From an uncultured Desulfobacterales bacterium (GTDB lineage: Bacteria; Desulfobacterota; Desulfobacteria; Desulfobacterales; CAJINA01), in assembly GCA_964647585.1 (NCBI GenBank), contig CAZYGG010000001.1, positions 99,373 to 163,372 on the forward strand: DNA of 64,000 nt, written 5' to 3'. The notes below the pieces were generated by a model. It was not told the DNA's origin. It worked only from the letters and a program-made list of their open reading frames with translations, and did not search any database. A program made the position numbers and the translations under genes. Every line of letters starts with the position of its first letter. Position 1 is the stretch's first letter. Positions 48,550 through 64,000 of the stretch are shown here, piece by piece.

Positions 48550-48766
48550 GCGCCCTGCCACCTGAGGCCTCTCTCTTTTTTCCGCATTTTCCCAGTGCCC
48601 TCATCATATTTATTTCTGCCTGTCAAAGATGTCTGTCACACAAGCGTCTGATAACAGGTACCCCACCGACATGACCATACCGGCCCAGCAGAAATAAATT
48701 ACTTGACAATTTTCCTGACATATTATTGAGTAGTTTTATTACTCATAAAGTATTTGGCGGTGAAAC

Positions 48767-49309
48767 ATGGAAAACCTGTTTACAGGTCTGATTGCCTCTA
48801 AAACCAGAATCAAGCTGCTTACCCGATTTTTCTTCAATCCCCTGACCCGGTCCTATCTGCGTGAACTGGCCAAGGAATTCAGCCTGTCTACCAACTCGGT
48901 CAGGGAAGAACTCAACCAATTGACCAAAACCAAATTGCTTGTTTCCAAAAGAAACGGCCGTCAAGTCCTTTACGGAGCTAACACTGCACATCCCCTGTTT
49001 CCAGAACTTAAATCCATGGTTGGCAAAGTCATGGGCATCGACCAGGTGATCGACTCCATTGTCACCCGCCTTGGAGACTTGGAAAGAGCCTACCTGATAG
49101 ATGATTACGCGGAAGGCAAAGACACAGGTATTATTGACCTGCTCCTGGTGGGGGAAATCGACGAATACCATCTTAATGATTTGAGCAGAAAAACAGAACG
49201 GTATATTAAAAGAAAGATAAGATCACTCGTACTGACCCGGGAGGAGCATAAACAGATGAAGCTTGAAGGCCGGCCGCGCCTGATGATATGGGAAGCGGAT
49301 AAGAGATAA
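48767..49309 (+). CDS. Winged-helix (ArsR-like) transcriptional regulator
   Basis: KTRIKLLTRFFFNPLTRSYLRELAKEFSLSTNSVREELNQLTKTKLLV is an HTH pattern. Confidence 0.6.
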   Translation: MENLFTGLIASKTRIKLLTRFFFNPLTRSYLRELAKEFSLSTNSVREELNQLTKTKLLVSKRNGRQVLYGANTAHPLFPELKSMVGKVMGIDQVIDSIVTRLGDLERAYLIDDYAEGKDTGIIDLLLVGEIDEYHLNDLSRKTERYIKRKIRSLVLTREEHKQMKLEGRPRLMIWEADKR

Positions 49310-49506
49310 ACCCTTTCCGAACATTGTATATTTAAATAGTATTTACAGATTGTTACGCCCCATCCCGAATGCAATCGGAGGGGCGGAGCTGTATTCTGCA
49401 TGTGAAATCAGATTGATAGGGCTACCCAACAAACCGTGCCGGACAACCAGAAAACCAGCGTGCTGAAAAGATCCCGTCTACTAAAATCTACCACTGAAAA
49501 GATCAC

Positions 49507-50214
49507 ATGAAAGCAATTATTCTATCAGCCGGCGAAGGTATAAGATTACGTCCGTTAACGAAAAACATCCCTAAGCCCTTACTGCCGATAAATGGCAAAC
49601 CGCTATTGGACCATTGGTTAGAATGCTTCGAAAAGAATGGTTTTTCCGAGGTTCTGATCAATGCCCACTACCTGCATGAATTGGTAAAAGAATTCATTTA
49701 TGACGCCCAAAAAAGATATAACCTGAAAATTAATTACGTATACGAAAAAAAGTTACTAGGCACCGGTGGTACGGTAAAAAGCAACTATCAATTTATTAAA
49801 GATGAGGATTTCTTTGTTTTATGTCATGGTGATAATTACACCGACATTGATCTTGCAGATATGATCGCTTTTCATAAGCATCAAGAAACAGATTTATCAC
49901 TGGCCCTTTTTGAAACCCCAAGCCCCAAACAGTGTGGAATTATCGACGCCCTTGATGATTCCGGTCGCATACTGAAATTCTCTGAAAAACCAAAAGTACC
50001 GCGAACCAATCTCGCCAGCGCTGCAATCTTTATTTTAGCGCCACGCGTTGTCGAATGCATACCCGCGGATACGGTTATTGATTTTAGTAATCATATTTTA
50101 CCCCGCTATCAAGGAAGAATGTTTGGTTACCCGATTAAAGGCTTCAATATCGATATCGGCACGATAGAAAACTACAACTACGCTAACAAAATCGCTGCGA
50201 ACAAGGCAAGATAG
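49507..50214 (+). CDS. Sugar-phosphate (or phospho-alcohol) nucleotidyltransferase
   Basis: MKAIILSAGEGIRLRPLTKNIPKPLLPINGKPLL is the NTP_transferase signature. Confidence 0.8.
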   Translation: MKAIILSAGEGIRLRPLTKNIPKPLLPINGKPLLDHWLECFEKNGFSEVLINAHYLHELVKEFIYDAQKRYNLKINYVYEKKLLGTGGTVKSNYQFIKDEDFFVLCHGDNYTDIDLADMIAFHKHQETDLSLALFETPSPKQCGIIDALDDSGRILKFSEKPKVPRTNLASAAIFILAPRVVECIPADTVIDFSNHILPRYQGRMFGYPIKGFNIDIGTIENYNYANKIAANKAR

Positions 50215-50245
50215 GGCCCTAATATATTTCAATAAAGAGGTTTCG

Positions 50246-51232
50246 ATGTCCGAGAGGGTAGTAGTTATAGGCAGTAATTCTTTCTCCGGGGCGCATTTTG
50301 TTCACCGCGTGCTGGAAGCCAATATGGATGTAATCAGTATGAGCCGCTCTCCTGAACCAGATCAGGTTTTTCTACCCTATGAAAAATCTTGTTCAGGCTA
50401 TCGCTTTTATCAGCTGGATTTGAATTTTGATCTGGATGATATTATAGATACCATCAAGCATTTTGAACCCCAATATATAGTAAATTTTGCATCTCAGAGC
50501 ATGGTTGCCGAAAGCTGGCAGAACCCTGATCACTGGTTTCAAACCAATGTGGTTGCTACCATTAAACTTCATGAGCGTTTGCGAAATTTCAGCTTTTTAA
50601 AAAAATACGTCCACATATCGACACCGGAAGTATATGGATCATGTGAGGGACTGGTTCCTGAGAGCTATGATTACAATCCGAGTACGCCCTATGCCGTTTC
50701 CCGGGCGGCCGCTGATATGAGCCTCATGACCTACTTCAAGACTTACCATTTCCCGGTTGTCATAACGCGGGCGGCAAATGTCTTCGGCCCGTGTCAACAG
50801 CTTTACCGCATTATTCCCAGGGCGATCTTGTTCTTTCTGATCGGCAACAAGCTGCAATTGCATGGCGGAGGTCATTCAGTACGATCATTTATCGATATCC
50901 GCGATGTTGCCGAGGGCACCCTGCGTGTGATGCGTAACGCACCGCCGGGAGAAATCTATCATTTTTCCACCATGGAAAATATTTCCATCCGTTCACTTGT
51001 GAAGATGGTGGCCGAGATAATGGGCATCGACTTTGAAAAGAATGTAGTGACCGTAGGGGAGCGCCTTGGAAAGGATGCCGCCTATCTCCTGGACAGTTCC
51101 AAGGCCCGGGAAGAACTCGGCTGGAAAGACCGTTTTACCCTCAAGTCAGGCATTGAAGACACGTTTGCCTGGATAAAAAACAGCCTCGACACCCTTAAAC
51201 TTCAGTCCTTTGATTATATTCATAAGCCGTAG
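50246..51232 (+). CDS. Extended SDR (NAD-dependent epimerase/dehydratase family) with atypical active-site residues
   Basis: VVVIGSNSFSGAHFV Rossmann motif. HISTPEVYG and PYAVSRAAAD align to the STDEVYG and YSASKAA motifs of RmlB-type enzymes. Confidence 0.7.
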   Translation: MSERVVVIGSNSFSGAHFVHRVLEANMDVISMSRSPEPDQVFLPYEKSCSGYRFYQLDLNFDLDDIIDTIKHFEPQYIVNFASQSMVAESWQNPDHWFQTNVVATIKLHERLRNFSFLKKYVHISTPEVYGSCEGLVPESYDYNPSTPYAVSRAAADMSLMTYFKTYHFPVVITRAANVFGPCQQLYRIIPRAILFFLIGNKLQLHGGGHSVRSFIDIRDVAEGTLRVMRNAPPGEIYHFSTMENISIRSLVKMVAEIMGIDFEKNVVTVGERLGKDAAYLLDSSKAREELGWKDRFTLKSGIEDTFAWIKNSLDTLKLQSFDYIHKP

Positions 51233-51243
51233 AGGAGATACGT

Positions 51244-52197
51244 ATGCATGTCTTGGTAACCGGTGGATGCGGATATGTCGGATCAATATTGGCACCCAAG
51301 CTGCTTGACCGCGGTATACGGGTAACGGTTGTGGATATCATGTGGTTTGGAAATTATCTAAAACCCCATGACAACCTAACCGTTATCCAGGGTGATATTC
51401 GTGACATTGACAGTATACCCATGGATACTGTCGATGCGGTCATTCATTTAGCCAATATCGCCAATGACCCCTGCGGGGATTTAGATGCCAAGCTTTCCTG
51501 GGAAGTCAATGCCCTGGCAACCATGCAGCTGGTTGAAAAGGCAATTGCACGCCATGTCAAAACCTTCATTTATGCCAGTTCCGGAAGCGTATACGGCATA
51601 AAGGATGAACCGCAGGTTACCGAAGATCTACCGCTGGTTCCCATCACCGACTACAACAAGACCAAGATGATCAGTGAGCGAGTCCTCTTGAGCTATCAAG
51701 AAAAGATCAACGTTTTTTGCATTCGCCCTGCCACGGTATGCGGATTTTCGCCGCGGATGCGGTTGGATGTTTCTGTGAATATGCTGACCATGCAGGCCCT
51801 GACAAATGGTAAAATTACAGTATTCGGCGGAAAGCAGACCCGGCCCAATATTCATATCCAGGACCTCACCGATTGTTTTCTCTATCTTTTGGAGAACAAG
51901 ACGATTGCACCCGGGGTGTATAATGCCGGCTTCGAGAACATCTCAATCATGGACATAGCCCGGAAGGTAACTCAACACGTACCGGCCGAAATTGTCGTAA
52001 CCGAATCAAACGACCCCCGTTCCTACCGGTTGAATTCGGATAAACTATTGTCTACCGGATTTAAGCCCGGATACGGTGTTGTCGCCGCAATACAAGAGAT
52101 TATCGCTGCCTTTGAAGACGGGGTATTGAAAGATACCGAAAATTCATACAATATTAAAACTATGAAAAAAAATATCTATGAACCACTGTCAGCATAG
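51244..52197 (+). CDS. NAD-dependent epimerase/dehydratase family protein (extended SDR)
   Basis: VLVTGGCGYVGS, ASSGSVYG, YNKTKM (YxxxK). GAGGAG RBS. Confidence 0.8.
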   Translation: MHVLVTGGCGYVGSILAPKLLDRGIRVTVVDIMWFGNYLKPHDNLTVIQGDIRDIDSIPMDTVDAVIHLANIANDPCGDLDAKLSWEVNALATMQLVEKAIARHVKTFIYASSGSVYGIKDEPQVTEDLPLVPITDYNKTKMISERVLLSYQEKINVFCIRPATVCGFSPRMRLDVSVNMLTMQALTNGKITVFGGKQTRPNIHIQDLTDCFLYLLENKTIAPGVYNAGFENISIMDIARKVTQHVPAEIVVTESNDPRSYRLNSDKLLSTGFKPGYGVVAAIQEIIAAFEDGVLKDTENSYNIKTMKKNIYEPLSA

Positions 52198-53005
52198 TAT
52201 CGCCGAATTAGAGACCATCGCTCGCCGGATTCGCGGAGCCATAGTGGAGTTGTCCCATCGTTCGAAGACAGCCCACCTCGGTTCGGCTTTATCATGCGTT
52301 GATATTTTAGTGGCGGCCTATTGGACTGCATTGAAAATCGATCCGCAGCACCCAGCGGACCCTGAAAGGGACCGGTTTATTCTAAGTAAGGGTCATGCCG
52401 CGGCCGCCCTGTTCACAATACTGGGGGAAAAGGGGTTTTTCAAAAAGGAACGCCTCCATAGCTTTGGGAAAGCCGGCAACTGTCTTGAAGAGCATCCCGG
52501 ACCTGGATGTGTGCCCGGGGTAGAGGCGGCAACCGGTTCCCTCGGGCACGGCCTTTCGCTGGCTCTGGGCATAAGTCTGGCAAGTCGCATTCAAGGAAGA
52601 TCATACCGGGCAGTGACGTTATTGAGTGATGGCGAGTGCAATGAAGGTTCCGTTTGGGAGGCGGCCATGTTTGCCGCCTCTCAACGCCTTGCAAATGTCA
52701 TCGCCATCGTGGACTTTAACAAGTGGCAAGCCACCGGCAGGAGTTGCGAAGTCATGGCCCTCGAACCCCTGGTTGACAAATGGAATGCATTCGGGTGGTC
52801 AGCGCGCGAAATTGACGGACACGATATGCGGACCCTTGTGGATGCTTTCAACATCCCAGATGGATCAGGTAAACCGACGGCAATTATTGCCCATACCGTC
52901 AAGGGCAAGGGGGTGTCGTTTATGGAAGACGATAACAACTGGCATTATCGCATTCCGACGGCAGAAGAAATGATTCAGGCAAAAAAGGAACTGGGGCTGC
53001 TATGA
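52178..53005 (+). CDS. Transketolase, N-terminal (ThDP pyrophosphate-binding) subunit
   Basis: HLGSALSCVDIL, SKGHAAAALF, GSLGHGLSLA, LSDGECNEGSVWEA. Confidence 0.85.
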   Translation: MNHCQHSIAELETIARRIRGAIVELSHRSKTAHLGSALSCVDILVAAYWTALKIDPQHPADPERDRFILSKGHAAAALFTILGEKGFFKKERLHSFGKAGNCLEEHPGPGCVPGVEAATGSLGHGLSLALGISLASRIQGRSYRAVTLLSDGECNEGSVWEAAMFAASQRLANVIAIVDFNKWQATGRSCEVMALEPLVDKWNAFGWSAREIDGHDMRTLVDAFNIPDGSGKPTAIIAHTVKGKGVSFMEDDNNWHYRIPTAEEMIQAKKELGLL

Positions 53006-53925
53006 GAAACGCGTTTGCATCTGAAATTAAGGCCCTGGCCGCAAAAGATGAAAAGGTTGTGTTGTTGTCGGGTGACATTGGGAACCGCCTGTTTAACCCC
53101 TATAAAGAAGCATTCCCGAACCGCTTTTATAATTGTGGGGTTGCCGAGGCCAATATGACCAGCATGGCGGCAGGGATGGCCATGTGTGGCCTGAAACCTG
53201 TCACGTATACTATTGCACCATTCAACACCACGCGATGCCTGGAACAGATCCGCGTGGATCTTTGTTATCATAACCTGCCTGTGATCGTTATTGGCGTCGG
53301 GGCAGGACTGGCATATGCCAATCTTGGGGCAACCCATCACGCCTGCGAAGATATCGCTTTACTCAGATCACTCCCGAACATGTGTGTGGTTTGTCCCGGG
53401 GATGCGGTTGAGGTCAAGCTTGCATTAAGGGCGGCTTTGCATCACGCTGGTCCTGTTTACATCCGACTGGGCAAAAAAAACGAGCCGGTTATCCATCTGC
53501 AAGATCCGGATTTCAAAATCGGCAGGGGCATCATTGTAGAGGAAGGCAGCGCAGTCTGCCTGTTGAGTACCGGAAACATGCTGCCGGTTGCCATAGAAGC
53601 CGGCAAACTGCTGCGCAATCGGGGAATTACGGCCCGGGTGGTTAGTATGCATACGGTTAAGCCCCTGGATGCTGAACTACTGCAACAGACCTTCTCTAAT
53701 TTCAAACTGGTTGCCACAGTGGAAGAACATAGTCTTATAGGCGGATTGGGCGGCAGTATTGCAGAATGGCTGATTGATCAACCACTCCCCAGTACCAGAT
53801 TGTTACGCTTTGGCTCCGAGGATAATTTTCTACACTATAGTGGAAATCAGGAAAATGCCCGACAAATTCTCGGCCTGACCGCTCAAAACATCTGTGAAAG
53901 CGTTATAAATGAAAATCGGGATTGA
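53002..53925 (+). CDS. Transketolase, C-terminal (pyrimidine-binding) subunit
   Basis: LSGDIGN, CGVAEANMTSMAAGMA, ATHHACEDIALLRSLPNM. ATGA overlap with the previous gene. Confidence 0.85.
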   Translation: MRNAFASEIKALAAKDEKVVLLSGDIGNRLFNPYKEAFPNRFYNCGVAEANMTSMAAGMAMCGLKPVTYTIAPFNTTRCLEQIRVDLCYHNLPVIVIGVGAGLAYANLGATHHACEDIALLRSLPNMCVVCPGDAVEVKLALRAALHHAGPVYIRLGKKNEPVIHLQDPDFKIGRGIIVEEGSAVCLLSTGNMLPVAIEAGKLLRNRGITARVVSMHTVKPLDAELLQQTFSNFKLVATVEEHSLIGGLGGSIAEWLIDQPLPSTRLLRFGSEDNFLHYSGNQENARQILGLTAQNICESVINENRD

Positions 53926-54541
53926 TTTTGATAACACCATCATTTGTTACGATGACATTTTTCACAAGGTGGCCTGCGAAAAGAAATTGATACCGCCTGA
54001 GCTTACCAGAACCAAAGAGGCGGTGAAAAAATATCTTCTGGCCCGGGAACGGGAGGATATCTGGACCGAACTGCAGGGATATGTCTACGGAACAAGGTTG
54101 ATAGAAGCCGCGCCGTTTCCAGGATTACCAAAATTTTTCAGTTTTTGCCGGGAGAATGATATCCAGACCTGTATCATAAGCCATAAGACCCGCTACCCCT
54201 ACAAGGGAAGAAAATATGACTTGCATGCGGCGGCCCACACCTGGCTTGAAAGCCAGGGATGGTTACACTCGGACAAGGTGGTATTTAAAAGAAAAAATGT
54301 TTTTTTTGAACCCACAAAAGCCGAAAAAATATACCGTATAAAAGAAACCCAATGCACTCATTTCATAGATGATCTGCCTGATTTGCTATCTGATCCGATT
54401 TTTCCTGAAGGCGTAAACCGGCTATTGTTTGATCCCAATCAGAATCACATTAAGATCCATGACTTTAAGCGTGTTTCCAACTGGGATGAAATTACGGGTT
54501 TCTTCCGTGACAAACATGAACCCCGCCCCAACCAGCCATGA
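53909..54541 (+). CDS. HAD-superfamily-like protein (possible phosphatase)
   Basis: The N-terminal IGIDFDNTI fits the DxDxT motif. There is little else to go on. Confidence 0.45.
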   Translation: MKIGIDFDNTIICYDDIFHKVACEKKLIPPELTRTKEAVKKYLLAREREDIWTELQGYVYGTRLIEAAPFPGLPKFFSFCRENDIQTCIISHKTRYPYKGRKYDLHAAAHTWLESQGWLHSDKVVFKRKNVFFEPTKAEKIYRIKETQCTHFIDDLPDLLSDPIFPEGVNRLLFDPNQNHIKIHDFKRVSNWDEITGFFRDKHEPRPNQP

Positions 54542-54544
54542 ATT

Positions 54545-55561
54545 ATGGACCGTAACATTCTAAATATCGCTGAAAACCTGCTTCATACCGCTGGCTTTCA
54601 GGAAATATCAGGGGTGACGCCGCTCGAATGCGGCGGGAACAACCGGGTTTATAGAATTGACGGCCCGACGGGACCCTTCCTCCTAAAATCATATTTTCAC
54701 CACCCTTCCGACCGACGAAATCGTATGAGAAGCGAGTTTGCTTTCCTGTCCTTCTGCTGGGACCTGGGCATCCAAGTTATCCCGAGACCTTTGGCCTGCG
54801 ATAATCATAACCGTGTCGCCCTTTATGAGTTTATTCAGGGGGAAAAAATCAAAGCCGATGAAATCTCTGAGAGCCATATACTTCAGTTTCTCGGTTTTTA
54901 TTCTAAAATAAATCGTTTGAAAGTATCGCAAAGAGCCTACCAACTGCCGGATGCTTCTGAAGCCTGCTTCAGCATAAATGACCATCTTGCCTGCATCGAT
55001 AACCGCATCGAGCGTTTAAAAAAAATCCCCGCTACAAATCCTATTGACACCGAAGCCATAGAATTCATACAGGCAAGCTTGCTGCCACTTTGGTTACACA
55101 CCAAAAATAACGCCCATCGTTATATAAGTACCCATAACATCAACCCGTCAGAAACCATTGACCCCGTTGACCGCTGCCTGTCACCATCGGATTTCGGTTT
55201 TCACAATGCTTTAAAACAAGGCGAGATGTTACGCTTTATTGATTTTGAGTATGCCGGTTGGGATGATTCTGCAAAAATGATATGCGATTTTTTTTGTCAA
55301 CCGGAAATTCCGGTGCCCGTGCGTTATGTCGATATGTTCCTTGAGTCTGTCGCCAGCGGTCTTTCCAAGCCCTCAGACCTACATCGCCGCGTGCGGGTTT
55401 TATTTCCGGCATACAGGATAAAATGGGTCTGTATTATGCTAAATGTATTTCATCCTGTTGATCATTTACGGTTTAATTTTGCACTTCAGGGAATGGATCT
55501 GGGGAAGAAAAAGCGACTCCAGTTGGAAAAAGCCTGCCGGGCTATTAAATGCTGCCAATAG
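54545..55561 (+). CDS. Phosphotransferase of the APH / choline-ethanolamine kinase family
   Basis: SPSDFGFHNAL and FIDFEYAGWDD (Brenner and DFE motifs). Confidence 0.7.
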   Translation: MDRNILNIAENLLHTAGFQEISGVTPLECGGNNRVYRIDGPTGPFLLKSYFHHPSDRRNRMRSEFAFLSFCWDLGIQVIPRPLACDNHNRVALYEFIQGEKIKADEISESHILQFLGFYSKINRLKVSQRAYQLPDASEACFSINDHLACIDNRIERLKKIPATNPIDTEAIEFIQASLLPLWLHTKNNAHRYISTHNINPSETIDPVDRCLSPSDFGFHNALKQGEMLRFIDFEYAGWDDSAKMICDFFCQPEIPVPVRYVDMFLESVASGLSKPSDLHRRVRVLFPAYRIKWVCIMLNVFHPVDHLRFNFALQGMDLGKKKRLQLEKACRAIKCCQ

Positions 55562-55601
55562 CACACATCTATACGGAAACATCACCAGGAGGAAAAACCT
55601 G

Positions 55602-56276
55602 ATGGGACAGTATATTGACTTTATGTCCGTTGTCCACAAAAGCACAAAACGCGATTATCTTGCCAGGGTAAACGAGCCTGAATACCCCAAGGCCAAAGCC
55701 GCCGAACTTGCCAAGCAATGGGATTTCGATTACTGGGATGGCGATCGCCGCATCAACTATGGTGGCTATCGCTATATAGAAGGACGCTGGGAAAAAGTCG
55801 CCCGGGCCATGGCTGAGCATTATGGGCTCCGGGCTGGCGATAAAATTCTTGATGTCGGCTGTGGGAAAGGGTTTTTGTTGTTTGATTTTACCAAAGTTGT
55901 TCCCGGTATAGAGGTTACCGGCATTGATATCTCTGACTATGCCATCCGCAACAGCAAGACTGAGGTAAGCAAGCATCTACAGGTCTGCAATGCCACATCA
56001 TTGCCGTTTCAAGACAATTCATTCGACTTTATCTATTCCCTGAACACTCTGCATAACCTATATTGTTACGAACTTGCAGACGCCCTTCAGGAGATGGAAA
56101 GAGTCGGAAAGCATCATAAGTATGTCTGCGTCGAGTCGTACCGCAATGAAGAAGAAAAGGCAAACCTGCTGTATTGGCAGGTGACTTGTGAATCATTCTG
56201 TACCCCAGCGGAATGGAAATGGTGGTTCAAAAAAACAGGCTATACCGGAGACCATTCATTCATTTTTTTTGAATAG
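55602..56276 (+). CDS. Class I SAM-dependent methyltransferase
   Basis: ILDVGCGKGFLL motif I. AGGAGG RBS before ATG 55602. The 55443 start overlaps the previous gene. Confidence 0.75.
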   Translation: MGQYIDFMSVVHKSTKRDYLARVNEPEYPKAKAAELAKQWDFDYWDGDRRINYGGYRYIEGRWEKVARAMAEHYGLRAGDKILDVGCGKGFLLFDFTKVVPGIEVTGIDISDYAIRNSKTEVSKHLQVCNATSLPFQDNSFDFIYSLNTLHNLYCYELADALQEMERVGKHHKYVCVESYRNEEEKANLLYWQVTCESFCTPAEWKWWFKKTGYTGDHSFIFFE

Positions 56277-56305
56277 CAGGTTGAAAAGATAAAGACAGGT
56301 AAATT

Positions 56306-57346
56306 ATGAAAAGTCTGGCTGCAATTTTGGTAGAACAGAACAAACCGCTGGCGCTTGAGGAAGTTGAAATCCCGAGACTAACCTTTGGTCAGGTTCTGGT
56401 GAAGCTGCTATACAGCGGCATTTGCGGATCCCAGTTAGGTGAAATTGATGGTGTAAAGGGTAAAGACCGCTACCTGCCCCATCTACTGGGCCATGAAGGC
56501 ACCGGTGAGGTTCTCGAATGTGGTGAAGGTGTGACAACCGTGAAAGCAGGCCAACGGGTTGTCCTGCATTGGAGAAAAGGATCGGGGATAGAAGCCCCCA
56601 CACCAAGGTATGACTCCTCAAAATTTGGCAAGATCAATGGGGGTTGGGTAACCACTTTCAACCAGTATGCCGTGGTCTCAGAGGATCGTATGACGGTAAT
56701 CCCTCACGATTTAGATCCTGGAATCGGGGCCTTGATGGGATGCGCGGTTACCACGGGACTCGGCGTGATCAACAACAATGCCAGAGTTAAAATTGGTGAG
56801 TCCCTGGTGGTTTGGGGAGCTGGTGGGATCGGCCTGAACATTGTACAGGGAGCCGCACTGGTAGCTGCCCATCCGATAATCGCCATCGACCTTTTTGATA
56901 AAAAACTGGCTCTGTCAAAAAAAATGGGCGCCACGCATACCCTGAATGGCAGCACGGCTAATATAGAAGAAGAGATCTTTAATATTTGTGGGAAAAATGG
57001 AGCAGATGTTGTTATTGATAATACCGGGAATCCGAAAATTATTGAAAGCGCTTATAAAATTACGAGTTCCACAGGACGCACAGTTCTGGTAGGCGTCCCC
57101 CCGGAAGGAAGGCAAACCAAGATTTTTACACTCCCCTTGCATTTTGAAAAAAGCATCACCGGTTCCCATGGTGGTGAATCCCGGCCGTCACTCGACATTC
57201 CAAAATACATAAAACTTTACCAGGCTGGAAAACTTCAACTAGATGCCCTCATTACAGATCGCTTTGGGCTGACTGATATAAATACCGCCATCACCAAAAT
57301 GCGGGACGGGGCGATAGCCGGCCGGTGCCTTTTGAAAATGTGGTAA
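56306..57346 (+). CDS. Zinc-dependent medium-chain alcohol dehydrogenase family protein
   Basis: GICGSQLGEIDG, GHEGTGEVLE, VWGAGGIGL. Confidence 0.8.
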   Translation: MKSLAAILVEQNKPLALEEVEIPRLTFGQVLVKLLYSGICGSQLGEIDGVKGKDRYLPHLLGHEGTGEVLECGEGVTTVKAGQRVVLHWRKGSGIEAPTPRYDSSKFGKINGGWVTTFNQYAVVSEDRMTVIPHDLDPGIGALMGCAVTTGLGVINNNARVKIGESLVVWGAGGIGLNIVQGAALVAAHPIIAIDLFDKKLALSKKMGATHTLNGSTANIEEEIFNICGKNGADVVIDNTGNPKIIESAYKITSSTGRTVLVGVPPEGRQTKIFTLPLHFEKSITGSHGGESRPSLDIPKYIKLYQAGKLQLDALITDRFGLTDINTAITKMRDGAIAGRCLLKMW

Positions 57347-57432
57347 CAACCAATCGATTTTTACATAAATGTTCGACCGGCGCCAACGTATGTCGCGGTT
57401 TAACTATCGAAAAAAATTGAAATAGTATACCT

Positions 57433-58896
57433 ATGAATCTATACACAAAAATACAAAACCTTGCCAAAAATCGCCGCATTGTTTTCCTGTCTGGTAATTT
57501 CAATATTTTACATCCAGGGCACTTCAGACTCATTCGATTTGCCAAGGAAAGTGGTGATTTTCTTGTGGTCGGGGTGTTAAATGATTCATCCATAGGCGCC
57601 TTTATCGATGAAAAATTACGGCTTGAAAGTATACAGTCGATCCATTGGATTGATTATTCCTTTATTCTTCAAGAACCGCCTGAAGTTTTTATTAAAAATT
57701 TAAAGCCCGCCATTGTTGTAAAAGGAAGTGAACATGAGTTTGCCTACAATCATGAAACAGACATTGTGGCTGAATATGGCGGCAAACTGCTGTTCAGTTC
57801 CGGTGACCCTTCTTTTTCCTCATTAGATCTGCTCCGCAGTGAATGGCGTGATTTAAATTATCTGCCTATAAAAAAACCCCACAATTATCTCTCACGTCAC
57901 GATTTGGATGCTAATAAGTTATTGGGAATATTGGAGCGGATGAAACGTCTTAAAGTTTGTGTTATCGGAGACCTTATCGTTGACGAATATATTACCTGCG
58001 ACACCCTGGGCGTGTCTCAAGAAGATCCGACGATTGTAGTTACCCCTGTCATGCAAAAGCAGTTTATAGGGGGGGCCGGGATTGTAGCCGCCCACGCTAA
58101 GGGGCTCGGCGGTACGGTTAATTATTTCTCTATTTCAGGGTGTGATGCGACGGCCGCTTTCGCACGGCCCCTGTTTGAAGAATATGGCGTTGCCGCTCAT
58201 CTTTATGAGGACGACAGCCGGCCAACCACCCTCAAGCAGCGTTATCGAGCCGCCGACAAAACCCTTTTGCGGGTAAATCACCTGCGCCACCACGATATCA
58301 ACGCTGAATTGCGACAAACCATAATGGCCAATATCCTTGAAACCCTTGAAGAAACAGATTTATTGGTTTTTGCGGATTTTAATTATGGGTGTTTGCCGCA
58401 ACTTTTAGTTTCGGAAATTATTGAAGTGTGTCGAAAACGCAAAATCATGATGGCCGCCGACAGTCAGTCTTCATCTCAGGTAGGCGATGTTTCCCGCTTT
58501 TGCCATACGGCCCTCATGACTCCAACTGAACGTGAAGTTCGCCTGGCATTGCAGGATTTTAATTCAGGCTTAGTCGTTTTAGCGGAAAAGTTGAGAACGG
58601 AAACAAATGCCGAAAACGTCATTGTCACGCTGGGCGCGGAAGGCCTGCTTATACAAACGGGTATCACTAAAAACAACCAGTGGCCAACAGACCGACTGCC
58701 AGCATTAAATTCAGCCCCTAAAGATATCGCCGGCGCCGGTGACTCTCTGCTTACTTGTGCTGCCATGGCGCTGGCCGCCGGGGCCGACGTCTGGCAGGCG
58801 GCCTACCTGGGATCGCTCGCGGCAGCCTGCCAGGTTGGACGCATTGGCAACATCCCGCTCACCTGCAATGAGATAGAGTCCGAAATACTCAAATAG
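57433..58896 (+). CDS. Bifunctional cytidylyl/adenylyltransferase-like (N-terminal) plus PfkB sugar kinase (C-terminal). HldE-like with reversed domain order.
   Basis: N-terminus FLSGNFNILHPGHFRLIRFAKESGDFLVVGV (HxGH). C-terminus VCVIGDLIVDEYITCDTLGVSQEDPTIVV...GGAGIVA...DIAGAGDS (PfkB). Confidence 0.75.
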   Translation: MNLYTKIQNLAKNRRIVFLSGNFNILHPGHFRLIRFAKESGDFLVVGVLNDSSIGAFIDEKLRLESIQSIHWIDYSFILQEPPEVFIKNLKPAIVVKGSEHEFAYNHETDIVAEYGGKLLFSSGDPSFSSLDLLRSEWRDLNYLPIKKPHNYLSRHDLDANKLLGILERMKRLKVCVIGDLIVDEYITCDTLGVSQEDPTIVVTPVMQKQFIGGAGIVAAHAKGLGGTVNYFSISGCDATAAFARPLFEEYGVAAHLYEDDSRPTTLKQRYRAADKTLLRVNHLRHHDINAELRQTIMANILETLEETDLLVFADFNYGCLPQLLVSEIIEVCRKRKIMMAADSQSSSQVGDVSRFCHTALMTPTEREVRLALQDFNSGLVVLAEKLRTETNAENVIVTLGAEGLLIQTGITKNNQWPTDRLPALNSAPKDIAGAGDSLLTCAAMALAAGADVWQAAYLGSLAAACQVGRIGNIPLTCNEIESEILK

Positions 58897-58982
58897 GCCT
58901 TGTCACGATTAAAACCTCTCATGTTCCCCATAACACTTTTTAAATTTTTAAATACTGAACGGGACTTTGAACGCGTGTAAAT

Positions 58983-60191
58983 ATGATATGCCGGCTTTGT
59001 GAAAAAAATGATGTAAGACAGATTATCGATTTTGGAAGACAACCCATCGTCCACAATCTTTTACGCAACCCGGATGATTCTTATAAACTTTACCCATTCC
59101 GGTTGGGAAAATGTGAAACGTGTGGCTTTCTGCAATTAATGGACTGTATCCCTCCAGAAATATTGTACCAGGATTATTTTACCCTTAGCGGTTGGAAACA
59201 GCAACCCCACATCCCCAAACTGTTAAGGCTTGTCGAAACAATTTTCAAAACTGACAAACAATCGGCTATTATTGAAATCGGCTGCAATGACGGCTCCTTT
59301 CTGGAGCATCTGCGCAACAGGGGTCTTACCAGTTTATTAGGTATCGAGCCTACCGGCGATAGCTACCAGGTAGCGCAATCAAAAGGCTTTGATGTTATTA
59401 ATGACTTCTTCAGTTATGAAAAGGCGATTGACTTGGTAAGTTTTGGAGATAAATTTGACCTGGTAATTGCAAGGCAAGTTTTGGAACATATCGCGGATTT
59501 AGACAACTTCCTGAAAGGGATCCGGAAAGTCCTGAAAAACAATGGCAATGTCTTACTGGAAATACCGGACGCGAGCATCCACGTTGACTACCTGGATTAT
59601 TCTTTCTGGGAAGAACACGTAAACTATTTCACCTTGAATACGGTAACCCATCTTTTGGCTAAACACGGATTTAGGATATTGCACAGTGAAAGTGTAAAAT
59701 TCTCCGGTTTGGCATTGATTGTACTGGCGGAAAAATCATCATTACCCCTAAAACCATCCGATCCAGCCCTGAATAAAGCCGAAATTGAGCGGATGTTGCC
59801 GTTAGAAAATAACTGGCCCGCATTTAAACATAACTACCAGGAAAACCTCAGCCGCTTAAAAGAGAAGGACAAAGAAATCGCAGTCTTTGGCTGTGGATGC
59901 CGGTCTTCAACCATTGTAAACTTTCTTTCGATCGGGGCCCATTTGTCCGGTTACATTGACGATCGCAAAGAGAAACAAAACCATTATGTTCCGGGCAATT
60001 TATTACCGGTTTATTCCAGAGAAAGCCTGCAGACTCAAAAAATCAATCATGTCATCCTGGGGGTTAATGCCGAAAATGAGGAAAAAGTGATTCAATCAAA
60101 TCAATTCAATGAGAATCGAATCTCGTTTGAGTCTGTACTGCCGCCGAGTATGAACCTTCCAGATTTCTGGCAAGAGGTGATTTCTAAATGA
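58983..60191 (+). CDS. SAM-dependent C-methyltransferase (NDP-hexose C-methyltransferase type) with an N-terminal Zn ribbon
   Basis: CRLCEKN...CETCGF, IIEIGCNDGSFL, and a C-terminal Methyltransf_14-like region. Confidence 0.7.
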   Translation: MICRLCEKNDVRQIIDFGRQPIVHNLLRNPDDSYKLYPFRLGKCETCGFLQLMDCIPPEILYQDYFTLSGWKQQPHIPKLLRLVETIFKTDKQSAIIEIGCNDGSFLEHLRNRGLTSLLGIEPTGDSYQVAQSKGFDVINDFFSYEKAIDLVSFGDKFDLVIARQVLEHIADLDNFLKGIRKVLKNNGNVLLEIPDASIHVDYLDYSFWEEHVNYFTLNTVTHLLAKHGFRILHSESVKFSGLALIVLAEKSSLPLKPSDPALNKAEIERMLPLENNWPAFKHNYQENLSRLKEKDKEIAVFGCGCRSSTIVNFLSIGAHLSGYIDDRKEKQNHYVPGNLLPVYSRESLQTQKINHVILGVNAENEEKVIQSNQFNENRISFESVLPPSMNLPDFWQEVISK

Positions 60192-60733
60192 CGATCAACC
60201 TGCTCACAGAGTCCATGGTTATAAGTGATGAGGTGTTGGTAGCTAAAAACCCAACTATTACAGTCAGCCATAAAACAATCGCAGACTTACTGGCGTTGTC
60301 AAATAATAACACCCGCAAAAGAATGCGCCTTTGTGCGCATAAGTATCCGGACGATCCTGTCCACGAGATGTTTATAGTACTCCAGAGGGGCAATTATATT
60401 CGCCCGCATAAACACCTCGATAAAGCCGAGTCGCTTCTTCTTTTATCTGGAAAAGCCGACCTTATAACCTTTGACGACCAGGGGCGCGCTACCGGGAGAA
60501 TGGCCCTGGGACCTTTTGGGTCCGGGTCCGGGGGATTTTATCATAAAATGGGAAAAGCCGTCTACCACACCTTGATCATCAAATCTGAATATATCGCTTT
60601 TCTTGAAATCGCCAAGGGTCCATTTAAACCAGAAAAGACAGTGTTTGCGCGCTGGGCCCCCCGGGAAGGAGAAGCGAAAAAAATCAGATTATTCTATGAA
60701 CAAATTGACACCACGGGATACTGCCATGAGTGA
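60188..60733 (+). CDS. WbuC-family cupin protein
   Basis: NNTRKRMRLCAHKYPDDPVHEMFIVLQRGNYIRPHKH...ESLLLLSGKADLITFDDQG fits the WbuC pattern. Confidence 0.65.
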   Translation: MTINLLTESMVISDEVLVAKNPTITVSHKTIADLLALSNNNTRKRMRLCAHKYPDDPVHEMFIVLQRGNYIRPHKHLDKAESLLLLSGKADLITFDDQGRATGRMALGPFGSGSGGFYHKMGKAVYHTLIIKSEYIAFLEIAKGPFKPEKTVFARWAPREGEAKKIRLFYEQIDTTGYCHE

Positions 60734-61943
60734 TCTTTACTATTTTCGAAAAGACTGCCGACTATGTAACCGCACCAATATGGAACTTGTGCTGCCTCTG
60801 ACTCCGACTGCTCTCTGTGACGCCTATTTAAAAGAACCGCAGGACCAGGCAGTTTTCCCCCTGGATCTATATTTATGCAAAGATTGCGGTCACATCCAGA
60901 TTGACTGTGTCATTGATCCTGAATACATCTACCGGGACTATCTTTACGTGACCACCAGTTCTTCCGGATTGGATAATCATTTCCATGAGTATGCCGGGGA
61001 TGTCGTAAACCTGTTCAAGCTGAAGCAAGGGAGCCTTGTTGTTGATATCGGCAGTAACGAAGGCGCCCTGCTGAAGCATTTTCAAACAATCGATATGCGG
61101 GTCGTCGGCGTTGAACCAGCAGCCGACATTGCCGAAGCTGCTACCTTATCCGGGATACCAACCTATCCCAGTTTTTTTAATGCCGCGATGGCGGAAACGA
61201 TTGTGAATGAACACGGCCGGGCGGATATGGTAACGATCAACAATTTGTTTGCGAACATTGATGATCTGGGCACCTTTGCACAGGCCCTGACAGGTCTGCT
61301 CGCGCCAGAAGGAATCCTGGTGATCGAGGCTGCCTACCTGCCGGATATGTTAAACAACATGGTCTTTGATTTCATTTATCATGAGCATCTTTCCTGCTTT
61401 TCAATTGCTCCCTTGAAAAAGTTTTTTAATGCTTATGGATTAAAATTGATTAACCTCCAGCACATCGAGAATAAAGGCGGATCCATGCGATATTATTTTG
61501 CGCGAAGATCCTCCGGGCATATAGAAAGTCCCGCGATCGACACCTTTCTCAAAAAAGAACAGGACGATCAAGTTCATCAGAAAAATGCTTTTGAAAAGTT
61601 TGCGGCCCGGATTGATAACTGCAGGCAAACCCTTCGGGATTGTTTGAGTAAAAAAAGCAACGCCACCATTGTAGGGTATGGTGCTTCAGCCACTTCAACG
61701 ACGTTAATTTATCACTTCGGCTTGCAAGATTACCTGACCTTCTTGGTAGATGACAATCCCGCTAAGATTGGAACCTACAGTCCGGGACTGCATATTCCGG
61801 TTAAGGATGCAAGTGAACTAAATACCCTAAAACCTGATTACATTGTAGTGCTGGCCTGGAGATTCGCAGATCAGATCATAAAAAAGCACCCGCATTTTAA
61901 AGGGCGCTTCATTATCCCATTACCCGAACTAAAAAGCAGATAA
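60726..61943 (+). CDS. Second SAM-dependent C-methyltransferase, paralogue of 58983-60191
   Basis: CRLCNRT...CKDCGH, VVDIGSNEGALL. ATG 60726 overlaps the WbuC stop by 8 nt. Confidence 0.7.
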   Translation: MSDLYYFRKDCRLCNRTNMELVLPLTPTALCDAYLKEPQDQAVFPLDLYLCKDCGHIQIDCVIDPEYIYRDYLYVTTSSSGLDNHFHEYAGDVVNLFKLKQGSLVVDIGSNEGALLKHFQTIDMRVVGVEPAADIAEAATLSGIPTYPSFFNAAMAETIVNEHGRADMVTINNLFANIDDLGTFAQALTGLLAPEGILVIEAAYLPDMLNNMVFDFIYHEHLSCFSIAPLKKFFNAYGLKLINLQHIENKGGSMRYYFARRSSGHIESPAIDTFLKKEQDDQVHQKNAFEKFAARIDNCRQTLRDCLSKKSNATIVGYGASATSTTLIYHFGLQDYLTFLVDDNPAKIGTYSPGLHIPVKDASELNTLKPDYIVVLAWRFADQIIKKHPHFKGRFIIPLPELKSR

Positions 61944-61947
61944 TACA

Positions 61948-62691
61948 ATGATGCAAAAAACAAGTGTCGTCGTTGGGGGTTCAAAAGGTATCGGTTCGGT
62001 TATCAGCGAGATTCTAAACAAAAGAGGTGATCGGACATTTAGTTTATCAAGGAAAAATGACAATGCTTTTCCGCGGCACATTCCGATAGACTTAACGGTT
62101 GAAAAAGCGGTTATTCAAGCTCTGCAATTACTATCTGAAAAAGTAGCGAAGGTAGATTACCTGGTTTTTTCCCAAAAATTCCGGGGCCCAAATTACAACT
62201 GGAAAAGTGAACTTGATTTGACGCTCCATGCTACAAACCAGATTATAAATCTTATCAGAAACAAACTGTCAACCAGTGCTTCAATTGTCGTTATCGGTTC
62301 ACCGGCAGGAAAATTTGTAATCAATGAACAGCCTGTTGAGTATCATGTAAGCAAAGCTGCCATTGAACAACTGACCCGGTATTACGCAGTGAAGCTCGGT
62401 TCAATAGGTGTTCGGGTAAATTGCCTGCTGCCGGGAACAATCATTAAACCCGCTAATAAAAAATATTATTCCGGTAACTCGGCGAATAGAGACCTGCTGG
62501 AAAAAATTATTCCCCTGCAGAAAATGGGCAATGCCGAAGATGTTGCCGAACTGACAAGTTTTCTGTGTAGCGACAAAGCGTCTTATATAACCGGTCAATC
62601 GATTTTCGTTGATGGCGGTCTATCCATAGTGGGGCAGGAAACCATCGCAAAGATCGTAAGTGATTCTGCCAATAGCAACCCGGAAAAGTAG
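61948..62691 (+). CDS. Short-chain dehydrogenase/reductase (classical SDR)
   Basis: VVVGGSKGIGSVI, YHVSKAAIEQL, PGTI. Confidence 0.8.
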   Translation: MMQKTSVVVGGSKGIGSVISEILNKRGDRTFSLSRKNDNAFPRHIPIDLTVEKAVIQALQLLSEKVAKVDYLVFSQKFRGPNYNWKSELDLTLHATNQIINLIRNKLSTSASIVVIGSPAGKFVINEQPVEYHVSKAAIEQLTRYYAVKLGSIGVRVNCLLPGTIIKPANKKYYSGNSANRDLLEKIIPLQKMGNAEDVAELTSFLCSDKASYITGQSIFVDGGLSIVGQETIAKIVSDSANSNPEK

Positions 62692-62710
62692 TACCTACCA
62701 AACTTCCCGC

Positions 62711-64000
62711 ATGGCCCGAAAACATACAAACGTCGCTTCATTGACGACCATATATGCATTTGGAGGTGTCCTCGCACAACTCCTTCCCTTTGCCCTGCTG
62801 CCTGTTTATACAGCCTATCTTTTGCCAATGGACTACGGCGCATTAGCGCTGCTTGCATTGACAGTAAGGTTGATAACACGGGTTGCTTCATCGCCAATAA
62901 ACCAGGGCCTTAATCGTTTTTACTATAAACCCGATTACGCAAAGAAGCGGGAGGAATTATTTTCAGCATTACTTGTAATTTTAGTTCTTAAAACACTTAT
63001 ACTGGCGTTACTTTACTGGCTTTTATCAAATTGGTTATGCACTCTATTGCTGGGCGAGTCTTCTTGGGTACCCATTGTCAGGCTATATGGATTTACAATT
63101 ATACTTATTCCTATTGAAGATTACATCATTACATTTTTGCGGCTTCGCAAAATGGCCTCTTATTGCGTATTTCTTAATTTTCTAAAAGCCATTGTTTATG
63201 CAGCTATTTCTGTTGGATTACTTGTCCGGTTTAACCTCGGTGTCATGGCGGTAGCATGGGGAGCAATCGCAGGAAGTCTTACATTGATCATTGTGGCGTT
63301 ACCGGCCATTTTGCGACACATGACCTGGATCTTCCGACCGGGAATTGCGGCATCCCCTTTAAAATATGGTTATCCATTGATCATTACTGGATACGCCGGA
63401 TTACTAATGCAGTCCGGCGACCGTTATATACTGAGAATGTTAGGCAGTTTGAGTGATGTGGGCATATATTCTTTTGGTTATCAGTTCTCGGGAGCTTTCA
63501 ACAATGTGTATGTCATGCCTGTCCATAATGCCGCTTCCCCAAAGGCTTTCCAACTAGAAAGCGAACCCGTTAAACAGAGGCAATATCTGCGTTCTGCGGC
63601 CACGCTGTATTATGCACTGGGATTAATGCTCGTCCTTTTTGCATCACTTTTCGCCAAAGATTTAATAAAAGTTCTTGTTCAGAATTCGGCCTTCTGGCCG
63701 GCCTGGGTAATTGTTCCAATTATCACCTTGTCATACCTGCAGGAAGGCCTGGGTAACTTTTTTGTCTGGGGTATGCGGATGGATCAACAAACATTCAATA
63801 TCAGTAAAATTGCCGTTTATTGTGGCTTGTTGAACATCTTTGTAAACATTCTGCTTATCCCTTTCTGGGGAATATTAGGAGCGGCAATTGCCACCCTTGT
63901 GGCCTATGTCGTTTCAAATATGTTGCAGCTCTACAAGTCATCCAAGGCATACTCTTTACATTTTGATATAAAACGAATTCTGACTTTATTATCTTTTGCG
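62711..64000 (+). CDS. Wzx-like polysaccharide flippase (PST/MOP family), 3' end beyond the window
   Basis: ATG at 62711. I translated 62711-62960 and 63242-64000 by hand and both stretches are open and multi-TM-rich (LAQLLPFALLPVYTAYLLPMDYG..., GYPLIITGYAGLLMQSGDRYIL...). The ORF is absent from the track because no stop is reached. Confidence 0.7.
   Translation, partial: MARKHTNVASLTTIYAFGGVLAQLLPFALLPVYTAYLLPMDYGALALLALTVRLITRVASSPINQGLNRFYYKPDYAKKREELFSALLVILVLKTLILALLYWLLSNWLCTLLLGESSWVPIVRLYGFTIILIPIEDYIITFLRLRKMASYCVFLNFLKAIVYAAISVGLLVRFNLGVMAVAWGAIAGSLTLIIVALPAILRHMTWIFRPGIAASPLKYGYPLIITGYAGLLMQSGDRYILRMLGSLSDVGIYSFGYQFSGAFNNVYVMPVHNAASPKAFQLESEPVKQRQYLRSAATLYYALGLMLVLFASLFAKDLIKVLVQNSAFWPAWVIVPIITLSYLQEGLGNFFVWGMRMDQQTFNISKIAVYCGLLNIFVNILLIPFWGILGAAIATLVAYVVSNMLQLYKSSKAYSLHFDIKRILTLLSFA

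Follow-up and report, generated by a model that had tools for sequence, protein, structure and literature searches.

A widespread, uncharacterised gene cassette with a variant split transketolase in a predicted polysaccharide locus of a Desulfobacterales bacterium

We analysed a 64,000-nucleotide stretch of DNA, referred to here as the window, from an uncultured Desulfobacterales bacterium (assembly GCA_964647585.1, contig CAZYGG010000001.1, positions 99,373 to 163,372, forward strand). From position 49507 to its end, the window carries fifteen genes on the + strand (g1 to g15), and we found that the first fourteen of them belong to a set that recurs in many other genomes. What is new here is a widespread, syntenic and uncharacterised cassette that probably starts from sedoheptulose-7-phosphate and carries a transketolase subfamily with a remodelled pocket.

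Gene content of the cluster

The fifteen genes, described as co-directional and often overlapping in the initial annotation, made from the sequence only, are separated by intergenic gaps of -20 to +86 bp. Gene families were assigned by Pfam and NCBIfam scans, and gene calls on identical contigs were used to correct the starts of g8 (55602-56276) and g13 (60726-61943). The genes are as follows, SDR standing for short-chain dehydrogenase/reductase, NDP for nucleoside diphosphate, ThDP for thiamine diphosphate and SAM for S-adenosylmethionine.

49507..50214, + strand: g1, sugar-1-phosphate nucleotidylyltransferase (NTP_transferase, 121 bits)
50246..51232, + strand: g2 (SDRa), NDP-sugar 4,6-dehydratase-like extended SDR (TIGR01181, 196 bits, cut-off 365)
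51244..52197, + strand: g3 (SDRb), extended SDR, candidate C4 dehydrogenase of an NDP-heptose (best PDB match 6vo6/6vo8, 133 bits)
52178..53005, + strand: g4, transketolase N-terminal, ThDP-binding subunit (229 bits to 6yak)
53002..53925, + strand: g5, transketolase pyrimidine-binding and C-terminal subunit (205 bits to 6yaj)
53909..54541, + strand: g6, HAD-superfamily phosphatase-like protein of an undescribed family, 210 aa (HAD motifs, fold of the AlphaFold model)
54545..55561, + strand: g7, small-molecule kinase of the APH/choline-kinase fold, the cassette marker (APH, 30 bits)
55602..56276, + strand: g8, class I SAM methyltransferase, 224 aa (Methyltransf_31/11/25)
56306..57346, + strand: g9, Zn-dependent alcohol dehydrogenase (ADH) of the primary-alcohol/aldehyde type (ADH_N and ADH_zinc_N)
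57433..58896, + strand: g10, fusion of an N-terminal cytidylyltransferase-like domain and a C-terminal PfkB sugar kinase, here called CT-PfkB (CTP_transf_like and PfkB)
58983..60191, + strand: g11, sugar C-methyltransferase with zinc-binding N, SAM and C-terminal domains (Methyltransf_13, _23, _14)
60188..60733, + strand: g12, WbuC-family cupin (TIGR04366, 124.5 bits, cut-off 42)
60726..61943, + strand: g13, NDP-4-keto-sugar 3-C-methyltransferase-like protein (Methyltransf_13, _23, _14; 242 bits to 4rv9)
61948..62691, + strand: g14, classical SDR, candidate ketoreductase (adh_short_C2, 121 bits)
62711..64000, + strand: g15, Wzx-type flippase, truncated at the window end (Polysacc_synt, 58 bits; Polysacc_synt_3, 42 bits)

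The enzyme types listed in the initial annotation (nucleotidyltransferase, three SDRs, split transketolase, kinase, methyltransferases, Zn-ADH, fusion protein, WbuC and Wzx) were all matched by Pfam or NCBIfam. Since WbuC is the only protein of the cluster above a curated NCBIfam cut-off, the remaining names are given at the family level only. The sub-cut-off matches of g1 are to mannose-1-phosphate guanylyltransferase, MurU and HddC, and a g1 homologue lies directly after the CT-PfkB fusion in three related loci (L074, L038 and L048) and after a GmhB-like gene in two others (L042 and L063). g2 is RmlB-like (158 bits to the RmlB structure 6bi4). The best structural match of g3, 6vo6/6vo8, is an enzyme which we take to be Campylobacter jejuni Cj1427. 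Cj1427 is a GDP-heptose C4-dehydrogenase (PMC10680097). The closest PDB relatives of g9 are class I and class III ADHs at about 130 bits, and g9 has no structural-zinc loop; an ADH of this kind would be a natural partner for an enzyme that uses or releases an aldehyde. Direct reading of the g10 sequence showed the HxGH and GAGD motifs. Both g11 and g13 have the three-domain build of sugar C-methyltransferases (zinc-binding N, SAM and C-terminal domains), and g13 also matches KijD1 and TcaB9 at 170-181 bits. g8, which is 60-75% identical to its counterparts in most related loci and 43-48% in a few, probably carries out an O-methylation. Promoter- and terminator-like sites in the locus did not exceed the shuffled expectation.

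No Pfam or NCBIfam family matched g6; the designation of this protein as HAD-like was nevertheless borne out, since HAD motifs I-IV (DxDxT, S/T, K, DD) are invariant in 8 sequences, and the AlphaFold model (pLDDT 87) retrieved HAD hydrolases with Foldseek, with a weak resemblance to 5'(3')-deoxyribonucleotidases at the subfamily level. In g7, the stretches 'SDFGFHN' and 'IDFEY' are invariant in 24 relatives. Its model (pLDDT 93) matched choline kinases, antibiotic kinases, NahK and MtnK at similar Foldseek scores, so structure does not discriminate the g7 substrate. The match of g7 to Choline_kinase (PF01633) is 20.5 bits, below the cut-off of 29, and PDB choline kinases are reached at E = 0.04-0.1. 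Judged from the model, what g7 appears to share with choline and ethanolamine kinases of the LicA type is only the general APH fold. In some genomes, a g6-type HAD protein is fused N-terminally to a g7-type kinase (545-575 aa). Fusions from other metagenomes (P0023, P0028, P0036, P0054, P0102, P0103 and P0117) are 543-574 aa long, with the phosphatase first and a variable linker.

Distribution of the cassette and its variant transketolase

About 4900 proteins in the protein database are related to the g7 kinase, with a typical identity of 45%, and at least 582 confirmed places were found when one genome per species was scanned. Planctomycetota, Verrucomicrobiota, Cyanobacteria (Microcoleus), Acidobacteriota, Elusimicrobia, Desulfobacterota and Burkholderiales are among the matches listed, as are the methanogens Methanoregula and Methanocalculus. 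We compared synteny by BLASTP of the window proteins against six-frame open reading frames (ORFs) of 80 loci, and counted components over the 42 loci with full flanks. The gene order is nearly constant: CT-PfkB, (GmhA), SDRb, (SDRa), the N- and C-terminal transketolase subunits, (ADH), the HAD-like protein, the APH-type kinase, (SDRa) and the methyltransferase. The transketolase is present in 39 of the 42 loci, the HAD-like protein and the g8-type methyltransferase in 38 each, SDRa, SDRb and ADH in 37 each (SDRb usually adjoining CT-PfkB or GmhA), and CT-PfkB in 35. The C-methyltransferases, WbuC and g14 move together as a sub-module and are less frequent: some C-methyltransferase occurs in 20/42 loci (g11 homologues in 12, g13 homologues in 17), WbuC in 18/42, and g14 together with C-methyltransferases in 11/42. 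All of g2-g10 are found in 20 of the full loci, and all of g2-g14 in three (L049, L068 and L074), of which L074, from Herbaspirillum rhizosphaerae UMS-37, has a g1 homologue too. The closest copies are in metagenome-assembled genomes (MAGs) of Syntrophales, with identities of 65-66% for g2, 70-71% for g3 and 51-54% for g10. Taken together, these results show that g1-g14 are the local copy of a widespread, syntenic, biochemically uncharacterised cassette; far from being peculiar to this genome, the gene set is strongly syntenic and spread over many phyla.

The recurrent neighbour families of the cassette are methyltransferases, glycosyltransferases, dioxygenases and aminotransferases. Three curated families, TIGR04323 (288 bits), TIGR04324 (149 bits) and TIGR04372 (215 bits), were found above cut-off in or beside the cassette of Microcoleus and other loci. 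NCBIfam names TIGR04323 'LIC12192 family sporadic carbohydrate cluster protein' and TIGR04324 'sporadic carbohydrate cluster 2OG-Fe(II) oxygenase', so curators had already noticed this cluster type; no function is attached to these sporadic-cluster families, and no paper on them was found in the literature. All three families are absent from the window and from a longer contig of the same sequence, L001 (tblastn; best E = 0.005, in an unrelated region). In the Microcoleus and other Oscillatoriales loci (L007, L011-L016), the TIGR04324 oxygenase and the TIGR04323 protein lie between the transketolase and the HAD-like gene, and two to four tandem TIGR04372 glycosyltransferase genes then follow, not Wzx. 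A distant relative of the cassette lies on the Solidesulfovibrio carbinolicus plasmid pDCAR1 (L091; NZ_CP026539, 84575-115498), the single relative found in PLSDB, with a kinase 31% identical to g7. There, a hypothetical protein adjoins the g7-like kinase, two split transketolases, methyltransferases and a PfkB kinase are present, and pseB, pseC, pseF, a NeuB-like synthase, radical-SAM enzymes and a TIGR04372 glycosyltransferase are interspersed among these genes. In addition, a contig of a MAG labelled 'uncultured Alphaproteobacteria' (L022, CAWGGC010000003.1) has a kinase 60-69% identical to those of Gemmataceae and Urbifossiella, and several of its cassette genes are fragmented, which suggests that the contig is mis-binned or error-rich. 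When this kinase was used as the query of a protein search, all the relatives retrieved were from Gemmataceae and Urbifossiella.

The transketolase is among the best conserved proteins of the cassette (55-68% identity in most loci), and its position between the SDRs and the ADH and HAD-like genes is fixed. The closest solved relative of g4 and g5 is the split transketolase of Carboxydothermus hydrogenoformans (6yak, 229 bits; 6yaj, 205 bits). As judged by alignment, g4 keeps the ThDP/Mg motif 'SDGE...N' and four catalytic histidines corresponding to human H37, H77, H110 and H258. In contrast to this catalytic part, the substrate pocket is altered, and g5 lacks the canonical set of substrate-channel residues of transketolase (EC 2.2.1.1): 'THAG...GEDG' is replaced by 'VGAG...ANLG', with an extra arginine in 'GNRL', so that the pocket His (human H416) has become Gly, the Asp (human D424, E. 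coli D469) has become Leu and a Ser has become Arg. In the yeast, E. coli and human enzymes, the pocket His presumably contacts the phosphate, two Arg and the Ser hold it, and the Asp reads the C2-hydroxyl of the acceptor. Both phosphate-binding arginines are kept in g5 and one more is gained. When 61 cassette loci were aligned, variants of the forms 'G[VT]G[AS]GL..YA..[LN]G..THH' and 'GN[RK]L' dominated, and the most common forms carry the changes of His to Gly and of Asp to Leu or Asn. The cassette transketolase thus appears from its sequence to be a distinct subfamily in which the catalytic machinery is intact and the substrate pocket is rebuilt. Loss of the Asp would fit an acceptor of the opposite C2 configuration (manno-type) or one lacking the C2-hydroxyl, and a phosphorylated substrate is favoured because the phosphate-binding arginines are retained. 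In three loci (L042, L047 and L058), a second transketolase gene or gene pair, far less similar to g4/g5, lies a few kb from the cassette pair; the pocket of the second transketolase of L047 differs again ('GDGAGLVYSTLGVSHQ').

The cassette also resembles heptose activation pathways. g10 matches rfaE_dom_I with 197 bits (cut-off 345) and rfaE_dom_II with 69.5 bits (cut-off 181.5), and the best PDB relative of its kinase domain is the heptose-7-phosphate kinase 4e84 (92.5 bits). Clustering of unassigned ORFs revealed a SIS-domain, GmhA-like family in 16 related loci and a GmhB-like HAD family in 9; among the full loci, GmhA-like genes occur in 13/42 and GmhB-like genes in 7/42, and both usually adjoin CT-PfkB. 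These features point to a cassette that would start from a sugar of the sedoheptulose-7-phosphate type. The initial annotation had named sedoheptulose-7-phosphate among possible starting compounds, and the GmhA- and GmhB-like genes beside the HldE-like fusion in related loci speak for it, although neither gene is present in the window or in L001.

Continuation, composition and flank of the locus

The longer contig L001 has the same sequence as the window, is 48.8 kb long, begins at window position 51948 and was read for 8.7 kb past the window end. In L001 the Wzx gene is complete (505 aa). It is followed on the same strand by genes for two P-loop proteins, a family 2 glycosyltransferase (GT2), a methyltransferase, an asparagine-synthase-like protein and two family 4 glycosyltransferases (GT4), and the GT2 and GT4 genes lie 2.4-7 kb downstream of Wzx. 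Only 19 bp separate g14 from Wzx, and strand and low GC content continue unchanged into the glycosyltransferases. Because Wzx is accompanied by downstream GT2 and GT4 genes, the locus is assigned to the Wzx type of polysaccharide locus. The proposal of a glycan locus is thereby strengthened; of the glycosyltransferases and polymerase that had been predicted downstream, the GT2 and the two GT4 are there, whereas no Wzy-type polymerase occurs within 8.7 kb. With moderate confidence, held jointly with the single-sugar proposal described below, we take the end of the window to be the 5' half of a Wzx-dependent surface-polysaccharide locus of the O-antigen, capsule or exopolysaccharide type, located in the chromosome. 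The downstream GT2, which has counterparts of 37-51% identity in 15 related loci, is the leading candidate for transfer of the special sugar. The two P-loop proteins directly after Wzx (492 and 263 aa; L001 12278-13756 and 13770-14561, equivalent to window positions of about 64225-66508) have only a faint thymidylate-kinase-like Walker A region and no homologue in the 80 related loci. The asparagine-synthase-like protein is an amidotransferase-type protein of 644 aa (L001 16618-18552), with a 36% identical homologue beside the cassette in L055 only.

Two further features precede the cluster.

48400..48600, no strand: compositional breakpoint between the housekeeping flank and the polysaccharide locus (breakpoint scan and third-position GC content, GC3)
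48767..49309, + strand: g0, 180 aa, weak winged-helix match, possible local regulator (GntR, E = 3e-4; ArsR/SmtB, E = 2e-6; both below cut-off)

The GC content is 0.519 in positions 1-48600 and 0.456 in positions 48601-64000, with the best single breakpoint at 48.4 kb in a scan with 200-bp bins (Mann-Whitney p = 2e-6 for one-kb GC bins of the two parts). GC3 of long ORFs falls from 0.625 ± 0.068 (35 flank ORFs) to 0.483 ± 0.043 (12 cluster ORFs). The AT-richer end seen initially is therefore real, and the sliding GC and codon-usage comparison proposed at that time separates the block from its flank by both GC and GC3; the scarcity of shadow ORFs agrees in direction, with ORFs of at least 80 aa decreasing from 2.76 to 1.93 per kb. 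Low GC persists for at least 8.7 kb past the window end, at 0.37-0.49 in L001. The word island, which had also been used, applies in one respect: the block is compositionally distinct, but a recent mobile insertion is not shown: no tRNA, integrase or repeat marks the GC border (the only tRNA is at 30.7 kb, about 18 kb away) and no integrase was found among the flank genes scanned. The far border lies beyond the data. The reading as a recent mobile island was set aside for want of mobility marks at the near border; surface-polysaccharide loci are usually low in GC.

A regulator gene of the winged-helix type had been proposed upstream of the cluster. The gene is there (g0, 197 bp before g1) with matches of the GntR and ArsR type, but all of these are sub-threshold. 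No g0 counterpart lies beside the cassette in any of the 42 related loci, and g0 is not part of the conserved cassette. The upstream 48 kb carry housekeeping genes, among them those for elongation factor G (EF-G), RsmB, two LolCE-type permeases, a LolA-like protein, DAHP synthase/chorismate mutase and CmoA. The EF-G sequence shares 81-82% identity with its counterparts in Desulfococcus, Desulfonema and Desulfosarcina, which identifies the host as an uncultured Desulfobacterales bacterium. Copies of the window sequence were also found in Logan metagenome assemblies and in a 182-kb NCBI contig. Elsewhere in the window, GC content is low only at 5000-7000 (0.43-0.44). This stretch contains an ORF at 5742-6206 on the - strand, whose 154-aa product carries the N-terminal methylation motif of type IV pilins, and beside it an ORF for a sigma-54 activator (6476-7822, - strand). 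Just upstream of the polysaccharide locus, an AAA_14/DUF4143 ATPase gene (45462-46622, + strand) has a GC3 of 0.45 compared to 0.63-0.78 in its neighbours and may have been acquired separately.

Proposed pathway, alternatives and meaning

We favour, again with moderate confidence, the reading that this is a Wzx-type locus whose first fourteen genes together make one nucleotide-activated, 6-deoxy, C- and O-methylated sugar of heptose or longer chain, with a skeleton change that depends on the transketolase. Judged from the enzyme families, such a nucleotide-activated, methylated deoxy sugar derived from a heptose or longer chain is the likely product. In this scheme, a ketose phosphate of the sedoheptulose-7-phosphate type would be isomerised, phosphorylated at C1 and dephosphorylated at its far end, and nucleotidylation would be carried out by g10, with or without g1; GmhA and GmhB would be encoded elsewhere in the genome. 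g3 and g2 would then oxidise C4 and remove the 6-hydroxyl to give a 4-keto intermediate, g13 and g11 would C-methylate it beside the ketone, WbuC would epimerise or isomerise it, g14 would reduce the ketone and g8 would O-methylate the product. The variant transketolase, with the aldehyde-type ADH g9, would change the skeleton by transfer of a two-carbon unit. Because its phosphate-binding arginines are kept, its substrate would most likely be a sugar phosphate, one whose C2 configuration or chain length is rejected by ordinary transketolases. The pair g6-g7 would provide a phosphorylation/dephosphorylation step whose place in the pathway is not confidently assigned, and the downstream glycosyltransferases would use the special sugar.

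Several results weigh against this reading. No product is known for any copy of the cassette, and every chemical step is therefore deduced from family membership. Both the window and the following 8.7 kb lack GmhA, GmhB and RmlD-like genes, and the case for a heptose start therefore depends on the related loci. g10 and the GmhA-like proteins fall far below the curated HldE and GmhA cut-offs and may act on another ketose or aldose phosphate. In addition, the known heptose 4,6-dehydratases are Gmd-like, which g2 is not. A single linear activation route would not need two kinases, two nucleotidyltransferases and a phosphatase. Some Gemmataceae loci have ADH, the HAD-like protein, the APH-type kinase and SDRa with no transketolase or CT-PfkB within 10 kb, which shows that the modules of the cassette are separable. 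Finally, the window and the next 8.7 kb contain no Wzy polymerase, initiating phosphoglycosyltransferase or chain-length regulator.

The surplus of kinases and nucleotidyltransferases would be accounted for if the cluster made two products, which we consider unlikely. SDRa, both C-methyltransferases, WbuC and SDRc (g14) would then make a di-C-methyl-6-deoxyhexose, while the transketolase, ADH, HAD-like protein, APH-type kinase, methyltransferase and cytidylyltransferase domain would make a CDP-activated small alcohol or alditol phosphate for a phosphodiester substituent, as in LicA/LicC phosphocholine or TarI/TarJ CDP-ribitol. g7 has the 'IDFEY' stretch, which we take to be a choline/ethanolamine-kinase motif, together with the weak Choline_kinase matches, and its fold neighbours include choline kinases, ethanolamine kinases and LicA. 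Ethanolamine-phosphate and glycerol-3-phosphate cytidylyltransferases are weak matches of the g10 N domain, g1 and LicC share a Pfam family, and in some loci the block of SDRa, C-methyltransferases, WbuC and SDRc is separate from that of the transketolase and CT-PfkB. However, the window, L001 and the recurrent neighbour families contain no LicD, TagF or CDP-alcohol phosphotransferase-type gene, CT-PfkB adjoins GmhA- and GmhB-like genes as expected for activation of a sugar-1-phosphate, and the fusion of a phosphatase to the kinase does not fit easily with synthesis of a phospho-alcohol.

The single-sugar reading has a stronger form, in which a heptose-type aldehyde is lengthened by the variant transketolase with a two-carbon ketol unit to give a C9 sugar, which the C-methyltransferases would extend to C10 or C11; we regard this as a rather remote prospect. 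The acceptor could be D-glycero-D-manno-heptose-7-phosphate, with its C2 configuration that ordinary transketolases reject, or an NDP-heptose whose terminal alcohol has been oxidised by g9. To our knowledge, the biosynthesis of the higher-carbon sugars bradyrhizose, caryose and caryophyllose is unknown. According to Busset et al. 2016 (PMC4743980), the bradyrhizose genes were unknown, and an 11-gene operon of photosynthetic Bradyrhizobium, centred on a dTDP-glucose 4,6-dehydratase-like gene, was proposed and is needed for the bradyrhizose O-antigen. A link between this operon and the cassette is speculation.

It is improbable, in our judgement, that the locus makes an ordinary 6-deoxy/O-methyl heptose like those of Campylobacter, Burkholderia or Yersinia, only with C-methyl groups added, and that the transketolase only boosts the supply of sedoheptulose-7-phosphate. 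In favour of this, genes for precursor supply are often found in polysaccharide loci, g4/g5 have kept their catalytic machinery, their closest solved relative was deposited as a split transketolase, and heptose-pathway genes occur in related loci. In contrast, the pocket changes recur over 61 loci from many phyla, which would not be expected of drift in a redundant copy, and the strong conservation and fixed position of the transketolase also speak against a role in supply. A rebuilt pocket combined with intact catalysis therefore argues against a mere precursor-supply copy. Moreover, characterised heptose pathways operate without a transketolase (PMC10680097). Least probable is a sugar destined for a glycosylated protein (flagellin, pilin or S-layer), a small glycolipid or a natural product, with Wzx and the glycosyltransferases as unrelated neighbours. 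For this reading, the pDCAR1 relative lies among pseudaminic-acid genes and a TIGR04372 gene, a combination that recalls flagellin glycosylation islands; in Microcoleus, tandem TIGR04372 glycosyltransferases and tetratricopeptide-repeat proteins accompany the cassette in place of Wzx; and methanogens carry the cassette too. Against it, the cassette here runs unbroken into Wzx and the glycosyltransferases on the same strand and at the same low GC, the downstream GT2 co-occurs with it in 15 other loci, and the block has no polyketide synthase, non-ribosomal peptide synthetase, flagellin or pilin gene.

The favoured pathway can be compared with known systems. The C. jejuni capsule GDP-heptose pathways consist of GmhA, HddA, GmhB, HddC, Cj1427, a 4,6-dehydratase, cupin epimerases and C4-reductases (PMC10680097), and the cassette resembles them in the sequence of isomerase, 1-kinase, 7-phosphatase, nucleotidyltransferase and 4-keto-forming SDR, followed by epimerase, reductase and O-methylation. 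Unlike the cassette, these pathways have no transketolase, Zn-ADH, HAD-APH pair or C-methyltransferase (PMC10680097), and their kinase is the GHMP kinase HddA, whereas that of the cassette is of the PfkB type and fused to a cytidylyltransferase-like domain. g10 shares both domain families with HldE (RfaE), a PfkB heptose-7-phosphate kinase and a cytidylyltransferase-like domain, but in the reverse order (transferase, then kinase) and with both domains well below the equivalog cut-offs. TcaB9, KijD1, the mycarose enzyme 4rv9 and TylC3 have the same three-domain build as g13, and g11 has the same Pfam domains. In contrast to these actinomycete 3-C-methyltransferases, the present ones are two paralogues in one operon, belong to the polysaccharide locus of a Gram-negative bacterium and probably serve a heptose-type sugar, not a 2,6-dideoxyhexose.

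Two antibiotic pathways are also similar in part. The GDP-octose of lincosamides is made by the transaldolase LmbR with LmbN, LmbP, LmbK and LmbO, and the octose of apramycin is likewise chain-extended. As in the cassette, a carbon-carbon bond enzyme of the pentose-phosphate type precedes an isomerase, a 1-kinase, a phosphatase and a nucleotidyltransferase; the lincosamide enzyme is, however, a transaldolase serving an antibiotic, while the cassette has a transketolase, which transfers a two-carbon unit, in a polysaccharide setting, and chain extension by it is hypothetical. The rifamycin 3-amino-5-hydroxybenzoic acid (AHBA) branch comprises RifL, RifK, the HAD phosphatase RifM, the kinase RifN and the split transketolase Rif15A/B, and thus also combines a split transketolase with a HAD phosphatase, a kinase and an NDP-sugar oxidoreductase. 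The cassette differs in lacking the aminoDAHP/AHBA machinery, in its kinase family and in its glycan context. The literature yielded no paper on such a transketolase sugar cluster and no published product, and the initial remark that the enzyme mix corresponds to no nameable pathway is in line with this and with WbuC alone reaching a curated cut-off.

Few parts of bacterial metabolism are as well charted as the nucleotide-sugar pathways, and we know of no such pathway that uses a transketolase. Since the g7 kinase occurs in at least 582 places, in organisms as diverse as cyanobacteria, planctomycetes and methanogens, the cassette is probably responsible for a common, so far unidentified surface sugar or sugar decoration of environmental microbes. 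If the pathway were worked out, a new sugar would be named and glycan biosynthesis would gain a new type of reaction; in thousands of genomes, the annotations 'aminoglycoside phosphotransferase family protein' and 'transketolase' would be replaced. If chain extension were true, the cassette would provide the first enzymatic entry to sugars of the bradyrhizose, caryose and caryophyllose class, in many environmental species, and the biosynthesis of higher-carbon bacterial sugars would become open to experiment.

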